Source of the DNA: an uncultured archaeon
Lineage (GTDB): Archaea > Iainarchaeota > Iainarchaeia > Iainarchaeales > GCA-2688035
DNA length: 64,000 bases
Reading direction: 5' to 3'
NCBI GenBank assembly: GCA_964354805.1
Contig: CAYHBD010000008.1
Location: 29,169 to 93,168 of the forward strand
Below, piece after piece: positions 8,622 through 62,163 of this stretch (position 1 is the first letter of the stretch; every line of letters begins with the position of its first letter). Both the position numbers and the translations under genes were made by a program. Below the pieces are notes generated by a model. It was not told the DNA's origin. It searched no databases and saw only the letters and a program-made list of their open reading frames with translations.

Positions 8622-9110
8622 CTATTTTTTCCCAAATTTCCTGCACAGGGCTTTTTTCACCGGCTTTGCAACCATGCACTCTATTGAACCGCCCATTGAG
8701 GCGATTTCCTTTACAGCAGTGCTGTTCAGGTAAAAGTATTTCGGGTTTGTTACAACGAAGACTGTTTCAATGCTCGGGGCAAGCTTTCTGTTAATGATTG
8801 CCTGCTGGAACTCTGTTTCAAAATCAGAAAGCTCCCTCAGGCCCCTCAAAATCACTTTTGCTTTCTTTTTACGCAAAAAATCAACCAGCAGGCCGCTAAA
8901 GCCCTCAATGCTGATGCGCTGCATTCCCTTGGTGCACTCTTTTACAAGGGCAATCCTTTCCTTTAAGGAAAAAAGCGGCTTTTTCTTTGGGTTTGTTGTA
9001 ATTGCAATAATCACGTGGTCAAACAGCTGCAGGGCTCTTTCAATCACATCCAGGTGCCCCAAAGTAACAGGGTCAAAGGTTCCGGCGTAAACAGCGATTC
9101 TTTCACTCAT
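8622..9110 (-). CDS. coaD: Phosphopantetheine adenylyltransferase, bacterial type
   Basis: AVYAGTFDPVTLGHLDVIER, ILRGLR..SDFETE, LNSTAVKEIA. Confidence 0.93.
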   Translation of the reverse strand: MSERIAVYAGTFDPVTLGHLDVIERALQLFDHVIIAITTNPKKKPLFSLKERIALVKECTKGMQRISIEGFSGLLVDFLRKKKAKVILRGLRELSDFETEFQQAIINRKLAPSIETVFVVTNPKYFYLNSTAVKEIASMGGSIECMVAKPVKKALCRKFGKK

Positions 9111-9207
9111 CGGGAGACACCCAATCCCCTGCGTAAACAGCGGTTCTTTCACTCATAAAAAAGCCATGGTGGCATTAAATTTTAATTGAATTGGGGCTTT
9201 GGCGGGT

Positions 9208-9609
9208 TTAATGTCTTTTGAGCATTTCCGCTAACTCCCGCGGAAGGCTCTTTAAAGCACTTAATATATCCAACTGGACACTTATGCCCTTTTGCATTTG
9301 CACAACCATCAGCGCCTGGCTTGACCTCATTAAATCAGGAATTTCCAAGGCAGGGTTTTCCTGGAAAGCAGTGAATGAAATTGCCGGGTTGCCAAATTGT
9401 GCGACAAGCGCTTTTTCCAAATCCAGCACAAATGCCTTTATTTGCTTTTCATCCCCCTCCAATTGGACTTGGACTGTTTTTCCGTCAACATTAAAAACAG
9501 CGCCCTTGCCAAAAGGCGAATTAAGCAGGCGCTCCATTATAAACGCCCTGACTCCTTTCTCAGTAACAACTTCTTCCGCTTTAGCCTTAATTAAAAAGCT
9601 CCCTTTCAT
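9208..9609 (-). CDS. Acylphosphatase-like domain protein
   Basis: KGVRAFI...GAVFNVDGKTVQVQLEG resembles the acylphosphatase G-x-R / N-x-x-x-G-x-V-x-V-x-x-EG pattern; helical C-terminal tail. Confidence 0.5.
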   Translation of the reverse strand: MKGSFLIKAKAEEVVTEKGVRAFIMERLLNSPFGKGAVFNVDGKTVQVQLEGDEKQIKAFVLDLEKALVAQFGNPAISFTAFQENPALEIPDLMRSSQALMVVQMQKGISVQLDILSALKSLPRELAEMLKRH

Positions 9610-9714
9610 TCTCACACCAGCCAATATAATTATACCCAACCATAGTATAAAAGCCTTTCCAGGCAAGGGTTGAAATTAACCAGTTGTTTGAAGCAAAAAA
9701 AAAAACACTTGGAA

Positions 9715-10329
9715 CTAATTAGGCATTATGCCCTTGATTAATTGCCTTGCTTGCTTTCTTGTTGCGTGCAGGCTGCCGCTGTTATCAATTACGTAATGAG
9801 CTCTTTTAATCTTTTTCCCAAGGGTTTTTTTGCGGAAGCAAAAAAAGGCTTTTTTAATCTTTTTCCTATGGGGGATTTGGGCAGCATAGCGCAACAAAAA
9901 TTCCTTTTTGCTTACGCCTTTTTTTAGCGCCCTTTGCATGCACTGGCGCTTGCCTGCTTTAACAACAATTACTGCGTCAAAGCGGTTCTGCCATCCTGCT
10001 TCAAACAAGAGGGGCACGTCAACAATAACAAAATTTTCCTTTTTTTTCTTGAGTTTTTTAATGCCCTTTTCAATCTCTTTCCATACGAGCGGGTGCAGAA
10101 TCCGTTCCAGCTTTTTTCTTTTTCTGGGGGAAGGGAAAACAATTGCGGAAATTTTGCTTTTATTGAATGTGCCGAATCCCTCCAACAATTTTTTCCGGAC
10201 AGCTTTGCGCTTATGCAATTCGCTGACTATTGCATCGCACCCAATTCCCGCAATGCCCTGCTGCCTGAAGAGGCGCAGAACAGTGCTTTTGCCGCTGCAG
10301 ATTGAGCCTGTTAAAGCAATCAAGCGCAT
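9715..10329 (-). CDS. coaE: Dephospho-CoA kinase, bacterial type, carrying a 16-aa in-frame insertion
   Basis: IALTGSICSGKST, LERILHPLV, VDVPLLFE, YVIDNSGS. Confidence 0.92.
   Translation of the reverse strand: MRLIALTGSICSGKSTVLRLFRQQGIAGIGCDAIVSELHKRKAVRKKLLEGFGTFNKSKISAIVFPSPRKRKKLERILHPLVWKEIEKGIKKLKKKKENFVIVDVPLLFEAGWQNRFDAVIVVKAGKRQCMQRALKKGVSKKEFLLRYAAQIPHRKKIKKAFFCFRKKTLGKKIKRAHYVIDNSGSLHATRKQARQLIKGIMPN
9817..9852. repeat. Hairpin repeat family A, copy inside coaE
   Basis: cccaaggg-TTTTTTTGC-ggaa-GCAAAAAAA-ggcttt, flanked by a 15-bp direct repeat ttttaatctttttcc (9804-9818, 9852-9866). Confidence 0.75.
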
Positions 10330-10346
10330 GGTAATGGAAATGCATG

Positions 10347-59851: not shown

Positions 59852-61027
59852 ATGAAATTGACAAAAGAAGAGCAGGCAATGCTTGCAGGCAAGCATGGAA
59901 ATGCTGTAAGGAAAAGCATGGAAATACTTGTTGCACTGGGGGAAATCTACGGAGCAAAAAAACTGATTGAGGCAAGCAGCGTGCAGATTGCTGGCGTAAG
60001 CTATGACAATTTGGGGGATGCTGGCTTGGAATTCCTGGCTGAAATGGCAATGGATGGAAAAACAAGGGTTTTGACAACGCTTAATCCCGCGGGAATGGAT
60101 TTGCAGAACTGGAAAGCATTGGGAATAAGTCCTGAATTTGCGGAAAAACAGAAAATGGTTATAGAGGCTTTTGCAAGAATGGGCGTAATCACAACATGCA
60201 CCTGCACTCCTTACTTTGTGGGAAACAAGCCGAAAAAAGGAGCCCACATTGCCTGGAGCGAAAGCAGTGCGGTATGCTACGCGAATAGTGTTTTGGGAGC
60301 GAGAACAAACAGGGAGGGAGGACCAAGCGCGCTTGCATCAGCGCTAACGGGAAAAACACCGGCATATGGCTATCATTTGGATGAAAACAGGCAGCCTGCT
60401 GTTGTCGTTGCGGTAAACGCGGAATTGCTGGACATTGTTGACTTTGGGGCATTGGGCTATGTGATTGGAAAAAAAATCGGCAACAAGGTTGCATTCATCA
60501 AGGGAGTGAAAAAAGCGGGCGCTGACGAATTGAAAAGCCTGTGCGCAAGCATTGCAACATACGGCGGAACAACACTGTTCCACATGCAGGGAATTACCCC
60601 TGAACAAGTGAAAGAGCCGAAAGAAGAAATTGCTGTAAGCCAGGCGGACATTGAGAATGCGAAAAAGGAAATGAACGATGCCGGTGATGTTGACTTTGTT
60701 GCAATAGGCTGCCCGCACTGCTCAATGCAGGAGCTTGAAAAAATCGCTGCGTTGCTCAAAGGAAAAAAAGTGACGAAAGAAACATGGATTGCAGTTGCAA
60801 GACCGATAAAAGATGAAGCGGAAAAGAAAGGACTGGTGAAAACAATTGAGGAAAGTGGGGCAAAATTTGCCGCAGACACCTGCTTTGTTGTTGCACCGAT
60901 CAAGGGGCGCTTCAAATGCATGGCAACAAATTCGGCGAAGAGTGTTTTTTACGCAAGAAGCAAAAACCAGTTCAAAACCGTTTTTGCCCCCATGGGAAAA
61001 TTGATTGAGATTGCAACGAGCGAATGA
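59852..61027 (+). CDS. Aconitase X catalytic subunit, probable phosphomevalonate dehydratase large subunit
   Basis: GVSY.NLGDAG, TCTCTPY, WSESSA...ANSVLGARTNREG, IGCPHCS, DTC.VVAP. Confidence 0.93.
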   Translation: MKLTKEEQAMLAGKHGNAVRKSMEILVALGEIYGAKKLIEASSVQIAGVSYDNLGDAGLEFLAEMAMDGKTRVLTTLNPAGMDLQNWKALGISPEFAEKQKMVIEAFARMGVITTCTCTPYFVGNKPKKGAHIAWSESSAVCYANSVLGARTNREGGPSALASALTGKTPAYGYHLDENRQPAVVVAVNAELLDIVDFGALGYVIGKKIGNKVAFIKGVKKAGADELKSLCASIATYGGTTLFHMQGITPEQVKEPKEEIAVSQADIENAKKEMNDAGDVDFVAIGCPHCSMQELEKIAALLKGKKVTKETWIAVARPIKDEAEKKGLVKTIEESGAKFAADTCFVVAPIKGRFKCMATNSAKSVFYARSKNQFKTVFAPMGKLIEIATSE

Positions 61028-61068
61028 AAAATAGAATTAAAAGGAAGAAAAATAAAAGAGGGAAGTTG

Positions 61069-61464
61069 ATGCAAGTGGAGCTGAAGGGAAGAAAAATCTG
61101 CAGCGGAAAAGCAAAAGGGGAAGCCCTTGTTTCAGCGCAAGGAATCTCTTTTTATGGCGGAGTTGACCCGGACACCGGGATTGTTTTGGAGAAGGGGCAC
61201 GATTTGGAGGGAAAAAGCATTGCGGGAAAAGTGCTTGTTTTTCCGCAGGGAAAAGGGAGCACTGTAGGCAGCTACACGCTTTACAGGCTGAAAAAGAACG
61301 GCAAAGCTCCTGCGGCAATCATCAACAAGGAATGCGAAACAATTGTCGCAGTCGGCTGCATTATATCAGAGATTCCGTGCATTGACAAAATCGAAATAGA
61401 AAAAATAAAACAGGGCACGGTTGTTGCTATTGATGCAGAAAAAGGGATTGTTGCAATACAATAA
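61069..61464 (+). CDS. Aconitase X swivel subunit (DUF126), dehydratase small subunit
   Basis: ISFYGGVDP.TG, GKGSTVGSY. Confidence 0.93.
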   Translation: MQVELKGRKICSGKAKGEALVSAQGISFYGGVDPDTGIVLEKGHDLEGKSIAGKVLVFPQGKGSTVGSYTLYRLKKNGKAPAAIINKECETIVAVGCIISEIPCIDKIEIEKIKQGTVVAIDAEKGIVAIQ

Positions 61465-61467
61465 CAA

Positions 61468-62109
61468 ATGATTCAAATGATCAAGGCGCTGATTTTCGAC
61501 TACAACCAGGTGCTTGCGGACGACCTTGAGGCACATAAAGAAGCATACAAAAAAGCCTTTGAAAAATTCGGGTTGAAACTAAACGACGAGGAATTACTGA
61601 AGGTATTGCACAAAACGCGCAACGAAAAAATTTCTTACTTAAAAAAAGAGCACGGGCTGCAAGCGGAAAACGACCACATTTTCATGGAAAAAGAAAAAGA
61701 ATTCTTCCGAATTGCAAAAACAAAAAATTTTTTGTTTCCCGGAACAGAAAAAGCCCTGGAAAACCTCGCGAAAAAATATTTGCTCGCAGTATTTACAGGA
61801 ACAAACATTGAACAAATGCTGATTCCGGAAAAAACAAGCAAATTGTTCAAGGCAATGGTGACAATAAAAGGTTATACCAAGCCAAAGCCAGATCCTGAAG
61901 GATTGCTAAAATGCATTGAAAAGCTTGGCGTGCCGGCAAAAGAATGTGCGTATATTGGGGATGCACCGCACGACATGACTGCTGCAAAGGCAGCTGGCTG
62001 CACGCCCATAGGAAAAGCAACAGGCACATTTTCAGCAAAAGAATTGCGGAAAGCAGGCGCAGACATTGTGATAAAGGACTTAAAAGAATTGCTGGAATTG
62101 AAATTATAA
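61468..62109 (+). CDS. HAD family hydrolase
   Basis: LIFDYNQVL, KPKPDPE, YIGD...D..AAKAAG. Confidence 0.85.
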   Translation: MIQMIKALIFDYNQVLADDLEAHKEAYKKAFEKFGLKLNDEELLKVLHKTRNEKISYLKKEHGLQAENDHIFMEKEKEFFRIAKTKNFLFPGTEKALENLAKKYLLAVFTGTNIEQMLIPEKTSKLFKAMVTIKGYTKPKPDPEGLLKCIEKLGVPAKECAYIGDAPHDMTAAKAAGCTPIGKATGTFSAKELRKAGADIVIKDLKELLELKL

Positions 62110-62163
62110 GCGAAAAAGGCAAAGCAAAAGAATTGCTGTGACTGAAATTATAAGGTGAAAAAT

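Follow-up and report, generated by a model that had tools for sequence, protein, structure and literature searches.

Attachment (att) sites may lie in the 3′ ends of genes, as with icd and the element e14, where the element rebuilds the end of the gene and the old one comes to lie beyond the cargo; this requires a dedicated integrase and a specific core sequence. Homology-facilitated illegitimate recombination (HFIR) has been described in S. pneumoniae, A. baylyi and P. stutzeri, and in E. coli the single crossover of a circular donor made partial duplications of the homologous locus (PMC3240628). In the rhs/contact-dependent inhibition (CDI) and type VI secretion system (T6SS) effector-immunity arrays, new ends push the old ones outward into stacked orphans, and an HFIR-like step has been proposed (PMC5361080 and works it cites). 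Stray single strands can make 3-100-bp changes, the microindels of SPDIR (short-patch double illegitimate recombination; bioRxiv 10.1101/2023.11.22.568220). The window analyzed here is a 64,000-nucleotide (nt) stretch, C8:29169-93168 of the 1.38-Mb, 88.5% complete assembly G000, from an archaeon whose closest named relatives are Candidatus Iainarchaeum/Diapherotrites. Genes in this window are accompanied by echoes, that is, short diverged copies of their own first or last codons. The echoes are a real, clade-restricted and quantifiable signature of the genome: they are directional, come in units of narrow size, stand at the ancestral position of gene ends, can have cargo between the new and old ends, vary in copy number and show mosaic ancestry. 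On balance, we lean toward the view that they are scars of DNA exchange between diverged relatives, in which related DNA entered at gene edges by insertion-duplication, selection filtered the outcomes and unequal crossover reshuffled the units.

A genome-wide search of gene ends against their flanks had been proposed in an earlier note on the window. For this search, genes were called with a simple caller of our own, and the resulting 5′ echo counts are less sure than the 3′ counts. In the wide test, the first and last 42 nt of each of 1,125 genes were aligned to non-coding DNA up to 3 kb away with a score of at least 16, and the controls were the opposite strand, the wrong side, another gene's end, and internal probes. 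The 3′ probes gave 67 matches downstream on the same strand, with 0, 8 (upstream), 3 and 4 matches in the respective controls, and the 5′ probes gave 30 matches upstream, with 0, 5, 2 and 3. The narrow test, with 300-nt flanks and 1,124 genes, found 60 3′ and 25 5′ echoes, and the sum of 85 is far above the controls (0-3). The echo frequency in G000 is approximately 7% of genes, or about one in fourteen. The note had counted many housekeeping genes among the targets, and the anchors are indeed housekeeping enzymes. Among 44 tRNA genes, a number too small to conclude from, no 41-66-nt echo was found.

A rate similar to that of G000 was observed in a second genus of the family, g2 (8 of 205 genes in G001 and 3 of 23 in G012), where some of the matches are perfect arrays and one was counted at both ends. 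Close metagenomic relatives had echoes at 6 of 63 genes with a slightly lower threshold. Other genomes of the family and order had echoes in only 4 of 984 genes (0.4%), and outgroup loci (Asgard, Bathyarchaeia, Anaerolineae, Nitrososphaerota and other DPANN) in 4 of 922. These counts restrict the trait to a small clade that comprises two genera of one Iainarchaeota family. For the relatives used in the comparison (G- and L-numbers other than G000, the window's own genome), the sequences are partial and span 17-240 kb each. Since kin do not count as independent samples, Fisher p-values for the echo rate across lineages overstate significance.

All pairs listed in the earlier note were located in the sequence, with small corrections at hmgA and GT4b, and its names for the echo-bearing genes were upheld (coaD, GT4, KaiC-like, Cas4-like, DUF296/PCC, asd, hmgA, DUF35, AcnX and HAD). 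The echoes and cargo genes (open reading frames, ORFs) of the window are as follows:

9128-9156 (-): coaD 5′ echo, 27/29 identical to 9082-9110; gene 8622-9110; period 46
11856-11874 (+): GT4a 3′ echo, weak; gene 10569-11765
13268-13304 and 13320-13335 (+): two GT4b 3′ echoes; the resident gene, 11946-13160, stops earlier
14169-14221 and 14247-14278 (+): two stacked 3′ echoes of the KaiC-like gene 13467-14165, ~70% identity, ~56-57 nt per unit
17302-17999 (+): antitoxin and PIN toxin cargo pair, between the new and old cas4-like ends
17982-17999 (+): former 3′ terminus of the cas4-like gene (16548-17216), which today ends the PIN toxin cargo gene
32260-32425 (+): far cas4-like 3′ echo, 165 nt, 88% identity; closes a 15-kb island
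36151-36186 (-): DUF296 3′ echo, 86% identity; gene 36199-36588; period 48
36722-37405 (+): 227-aa cargo ORF that separates the DUF296 start from the far echo; its sole lead, a weak one, is methyltransferase-like
37416-37506 (-): far DUF296 5′ echo, 55 coding nt (37416-37470 against 36534-36588, 52/55) plus 36 upstream nt
44043-44071 (+): asd 5′ echo, 79% identity, at the ancestral start overlapping lysC; unit with spacer 44043-44092; period 50
49779-49855 (+): hmgA 5′ unit, made up of the old ribosome-binding region, a decayed start and the new ribosome-binding region; period 56-57
54106-54137 (+): near DUF35 3′ echo, after a 19-nt spacer (unit 54087-54137); gene 53682-54086
54154-54786 (+): DUF35 cargo ORF, a 210-aa all-helical orphan; the far DUF35 echo makes up its final 47 nt (54740-54786) and stands at the ancestral position
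61024-61053 (+): AcnX small-subunit 5′ echo, 76% identity, at the ancestral overlapping start; unit with spacer 61024-61068; period 45
62126-62153 (+): HAD 3′ echo, 89% identity, after a 16-nt spacer (unit 62110-62153); gene 61477-62109; period 44

The relatives indicate which of the two copies is the older. At five sites (asd, AcnX small subunit, hmgA, the far DUF35 echo, and the cas4-like echo at 17982) the echo stands at the ancestral position of the gene end. The asd and AcnX echoes keep the stop/start overlap that the echo-free relatives L300 and L241 use for the real start, and the hmgA echo follows an upstream flank common to L300. The far DUF35 echo adjoins the gene that comes after DUF35 in G009, and the cas4-like echo at 17982, together with its flank, matches what L298 has at the end of the gene and next to it. 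The outer flanks are the same in echo-free relatives, and the resident end is kept in duplicate. The claim that an echo is the displaced terminus of an older allele is thus borne out at these five loci; the related claim, that echoes lie on the far side of cargo, also holds, as toxin-antitoxin pairs and orphan ORFs were found between the two ends.

At DUF35, the number of short echoes ranges from 0 (L134 and G009) through 1 (G000, L158 and L137) to 2 (L300). A 21-nt core of the echo is identical to the working allele of L134 at 21/21 positions and to the resident allele at 17/21. Of the two echoes in L300, the proximal one still forms an intact coding end, one silent change away from the working allele of L134, and the distal one is decayed; the single echo of G000 looks like a hybrid of these two. 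In terms of the order of stacked echoes genome-wide, the newest lies next to the gene in 12 cases compared to 4, a count with a selection bias towards proximal echoes. Both GT4b echoes copy an older end that is gone from the resident gene and is still the working end in L298, so the GT4b claim stands for the presence of two copies and is amended as to what they copy. More generally, the expectation that echoes match the alleles of other strains better than the resident allele holds only at DUF35, cas4-like and GT4b, and partly at DUF296; at most other loci the relatives are closer to the gene.

Presence also varies between strains. Echoes at KaiC, asd, hmgA and coaD are absent from the relatives seen (coaD: L298, L296 and L297; KaiC-like: L298, L299 and L305; asd: L300; hmgA: L300 and contigs of runs X1 and X5). 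The AcnX small-subunit echo is common to L239 and L240 and absent in L241, L300 carries a similar DUF296 3′ unit with a period of 49, and L298 and L305 keep an extra, closer GT4a unit that is lost in G000. L239 is almost identical to G000 over the HAD gene and has the same spacer with a different echo tail. In the comparison with L239, changed codons among identical residues amount to 5% in HAD compared to 17% and 22% in its neighbors, and the break lies inside the echo, which is what crossovers within repeat copies would produce. At DUF35, the short echoes vary independently of the cargo: L300 carries two of them and retains its cargo, and one contig of run X3 has no DUF35 cargo and keeps the echo after 19 letters, a state that fits either cargo loss or a pre-cargo condition. 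Short echoes therefore do not look like the remnants of cargo loss that the earlier note had suggested for stacked echoes, since periods are confined to 41-66 nt and L300 has its cargo beside two short echoes; the one contig is compatible with cargo loss.

Selection might keep echoes as spare termini, translational-coupling aids or regulatory elements, and the 19-nt DUF35 spacer is indeed identical in G000 and L158 despite many silent differences between the genes. However, recent recombination can account for this shared spacer, stops and frameshifts accrue in echoes, and at nearly every site echoes are present or absent among close relatives. We consider this explanation very improbable.

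Still less credible is that the echoes are assembly chimeras of co-occurring strains. G000 is a metagenome assembly, and the sequencing-run evidence (X1, X2, X3 and X5) consisted of small shares of assembled contigs, with no raw reads. Against a chimeric origin, the Logan contig L218, a separate assembly that may derive from the sample behind the window, shows no difference across the DUF35 echo; in L158, L239 and L300, which come from other samples and from strains that are only 82-95% identical, the same echo is present with the same spacer; and contigs of run X2 span the AcnX and HAD echoes. In all, the same echoes and spacers were recovered in other samples, studies and assemblies (L158, L218, L239, L240 and L300), which answers the concern of the earlier note about strain chimeras with independent assemblies.

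The repeat units have a characteristic anatomy. The period of cargo-free units clusters at 41-66 nt, with further cases near twice that; the earlier note's spacing of 44-57 bp is widened accordingly. The 83 units of no more than 76 nt have a mean period of 53 nt (standard deviation, SD, 9) and a repeat length of 37±17 nt, and repeat and spacer lengths are inversely related, a relation to which decay alone contributes. In young echoes the repeat length varies (31±13 nt), more widely than the period does. Along the echo diagonal, identity falls across the stop codon (0.84 to 0.52 to 0.33) and rises at the start codon (0.52 to 0.84); the coding side of this profile was chosen by the probe and the outside was not selected. 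Several young echoes are perfect over 27-31 nt, yet they enclose 27-28-nt spacers that resemble neither flank, and pure tandem copying is therefore insufficient. A search of the own genome for spacer sources gave weak 14-20-nt matches for 9 of 54 spacers compared to 19 of 270 shuffles, with none clear. The cargo enclosed by far echoes, which measure approximately 40-165 nt, includes toxin-antitoxin pairs, orphan ORFs and an AAA_14/DUF4143 ATPase.

A mechanism of three steps would account for this pattern. In the first step, related DNA spanning the edge of a conserved gene would bring in the donor's terminal codons and its own flank, which may be a few bases or cargo genes. The incoming piece would be added beside the matching resident sequence and would not replace it, through either a single crossover of a circularized fragment or anchoring on one side, the free end being rejoined 20-55 nt back. 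The incoming end would then complete the gene and the old end would be stranded at its ancestral place. In the second step, selection would keep only the events that leave a whole gene, giving 3′ copies downstream and 5′ copies upstream, the directional pattern that is seen directly in the probe counts. In the third step, crossovers between repeat copies of different strains would add, remove and refresh units, which would result in 0-2 copies per site and in fresh echoes beside old spacers. We infer all three elements, birth by insertion-duplication, filtering by selection and turnover by unequal crossover, and the echoes themselves are probably non-functional scars. The idea of anchored gene capture and displacement was largely right as to ancestral position, cargo and some donor alleles; its arguments from silent changes and from cargo loss were less so.

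Local duplication combined with ordinary recombination is the main rival to insertion-duplication, and we regard it as possible, if clearly the less probable of the two. According to this explanation, slippage in replication or repair makes 41-66-nt tandem duplications anywhere and only those that straddle a start or stop survive; their outer parts are later swapped by homologous recombination, and the middle decays into a foreign-looking spacer. The differences between gene and echo favor third positions (43-47%, p ~1e-5 compared to one third), and pN/pS is 0.55 for echoes and 0.36 for far echoes. The earlier note had held that silent differences exclude local duplication and had called for a comparison with simulated neutral decay. 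The observed synonymous share, 0.394, is above that of pure decay (0.26), but it is not clearly above that of local duplication with a selected gene copy (0.364±0.018); with both copies coding, the simulated share is 0.39-0.49. Since silent changes go on accumulating in the working copy, the silent excess fits local duplication as well, and the argument is invalid on its own. Only two features of the coding history favor a recently coding echo: stop codons in echoes are scarce (8 compared to 16.9±3.2 in simulated local duplication), and echoes with at least 3 differences, all of them silent, are in excess (7 compared to 1.4±1.0).

Several observations weigh against insertion-duplication, and a number of them suit a local origin. 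The synonymous share lies within approximately 1.7 SD of the value simulated for local duplication when the gene copy is selected. Some units, such as that of KaiC (52/57 nt), are copied over their full length and contain nothing foreign, and the distal DUF35 spacer of L300, read by eye, equals the gene's own codons at 12/20 sites. Perfect arrays occur in g2 at gene starts or ends, with a 41-nt repeat at L230:1425-1530 and a 29-nt repeat at L225:9250-9340, and speak most strongly for local amplification. The asd spacer can be read as the flank of G009 or as asd's own codons, and for no spacer could a donor that has it as a natural flank be found with certainty. At coaD, KaiC, hmgA, HAD and the DUF296 start, the sampled relatives match the gene and not the echo. 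Searches of G000 (88.5% complete) and of the relatives found neither MutS nor the proteins of bacterial-type natural competence, DprA and ComEC, in G000 or in almost any relative searched; archaeal DNA uptake may use other proteins; NucS and histone are present in G000 and also in most echo-poor relatives, and therefore none of these proteins tracks the echo trait. A local origin further agrees with the spacers, a minority of which resemble their own flanks (downstream p=0.026), and with the peak at 40-70 nt among intergenic repeats (64 compared to 7 in 1.9 Mb of other DNA), including non-dispersed ones, so that gene termini are the most visible class and not the sole one. What a local origin leaves unexplained, unless recombination between strains is added, is the cargo between copies, the sharp loss of homology at the codon boundary and the shortage of stop codons.

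Intergenic direct repeats of the echo size class were also observed in the window at 10347-10445 (period 58) and 32175-32260 (period 48). A 35-nt intergenic direct repeat (83%; 41625-41659 and 42614-42648) surrounds a 291-aa orphan ORF at 41741-42616; the relative L300 has no such ORF and a single copy of the repeat, which is the anatomy of an insertion-duplication without a gene end. An independent DUF35 3′ echo with a period of ~30 nt was seen at L185:3390-3420, in a distant relative (<70% protein identity). The idea that echoes are promoter copies was dropped, as TATA-like motifs were not enriched in intergenic repeats (9 compared to 11.5 expected).

Echoes could also be attL/attR-like or homing-endonuclease scars of mobile elements that replaced gene ends and were later lost. 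The far cases show att-like anatomy and toxin-antitoxin cargo, and two tyrosine recombinases are encoded on other contigs of the genome. Against this stand approximately 85 unrelated sites with no apparent common sequence (controls with other genes' ends were at background; no search was aimed at motifs). The cargo proteins that were scanned include no integrase, in agreement with the earlier statement that none is visible at the echoes. The DUF35 cargo has an all-helical predicted fold, belongs to a small orphan family and has no structural match, including none to a nuclease; the other cargo of the window consists of toxin-antitoxin pairs or orphans, and a homing-nuclease origin, for which the window cargo was considered, is unsupported. 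No RVT_1 match to a reverse transcriptase and no Cas1 were found in G000, an incomplete genome, and the echo mismatch rate by base (A 0.15, C 0.27, G 0.19 and T 0.16) has no adenine bias. A diversity-generating retroelement was rejected on the grounds of the missing RVT_1 match and adenine bias, and CRISPR/casposon-type integration on the grounds of the missing Cas1 and of a repeat length that varies while the period is narrower. As a whole, the mobile-element explanation is improbable, and for the short echoes it is largely excluded.

Some further features of the loci were noted. HEPN/nucleotidyltransferase genes lie directly upstream of coaD at L296:142-791 and L297:1581-1880, at the site of the echo in G000. 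Two related hairpin-like elements are found on opposite strands at 13180-13245 and 37520-37620; the first follows the shortened GT4b end and is doubled in L305. The cas4-like island (17217-32259, 15 kb, from the gene end to the far echo) encodes antitoxin/PIN, Fic, a RelE-like toxin and a 3,377-aa repetitive ORF, and L298 has different genes at this site. The hmgA echo proper is at 49800-49830, a correction of the position of about 49751-49820 given before, and the ribosome-binding-region copy at 49779-49798 corresponds to 49836-49855. The mevalonate-pathway genes differ at the same place between close relatives (54803-63003 and L302:11161-17597): G000 has aconitase X subunits and isopentenyl phosphate kinase, where L302 has MVD-like and GHMP kinase genes.

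If insertion-duplication is correct, past allele replacements at dozens of ordinary genes can be read, in order, from these genomes, and small archaea would have an integrase-free way to acquire toxin-antitoxin and orphan genes while leaving a compact genome unbroken. Because the trait stops sharply at the edge of the lineage (~7% compared to 0.4% of genes) and the unit size is fixed, it is feasible to look comparatively for the responsible change in repair or recombination. A practical consequence is that echoes lead start-codon calls astray and resemble att sites. A rather doubtful extension is that the two genera have an undescribed route that captures pieces of set size (~41-66 nt) and adds them in tandem at any homologous site, longer pieces leading to integrase-free cargo capture at arbitrary housekeeping genes; as part of the same tentative idea, the set-size pieces might be, for example, circularized or protein-protected fragments. 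A literature search of incomplete coverage found no published description of this echo pattern in archaea.

Among the known systems, SPDIR overlaps with the echoes in size only; it swaps fully heterologous patches at microhomologies, is very rare and has not been described with tandem copies of gene ends. The likeness to attP-type replacement, which the earlier note had drawn, is real in that the old end lies beyond the cargo as in att-type 3′-end elements, and it ends where the echoes have no linked integrase and unrelated targets. The closest anatomical precedent is the E. coli insertion-duplication from circular donors, which gives a gene end, foreign DNA and a second gene end as in echoes; those duplications are 109-950 bp and were made with plasmid substrates in the laboratory (PMC3240628), whereas the echoes are 41-66 nt (far repeats ~40-165 nt), natural and genome-wide. 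Displacement in rhs/T6SS arrays shares the stacked orphan ends with the newest next to the gene, as at DUF35 in L300 and in the majority of stacked echoes; it concerns polymorphic toxin and immunity loci and gene-sized modules (PMC5361080), in contrast to 6-18 codons at the 5′ and 3′ ends of housekeeping genes. The comparison with HFIR, also made before, holds for the anchor: one homologous anchor admits a foreign flank or cargo beside a conserved gene, and in the echoes homology ends at the start or stop codon and gives way to unrelated spacers or cargo, as a one-sided anchor of the HFIR type does. It does not hold for the outcome, as HFIR deletes resident DNA and is rare, while echoes duplicate resident DNA at ~7% of genes with a narrow unit size. 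In summary, the echo process works like HFIR and rhs/T6SS displacement and yet belongs to neither, because resident DNA is duplicated and the targets are housekeeping genes.

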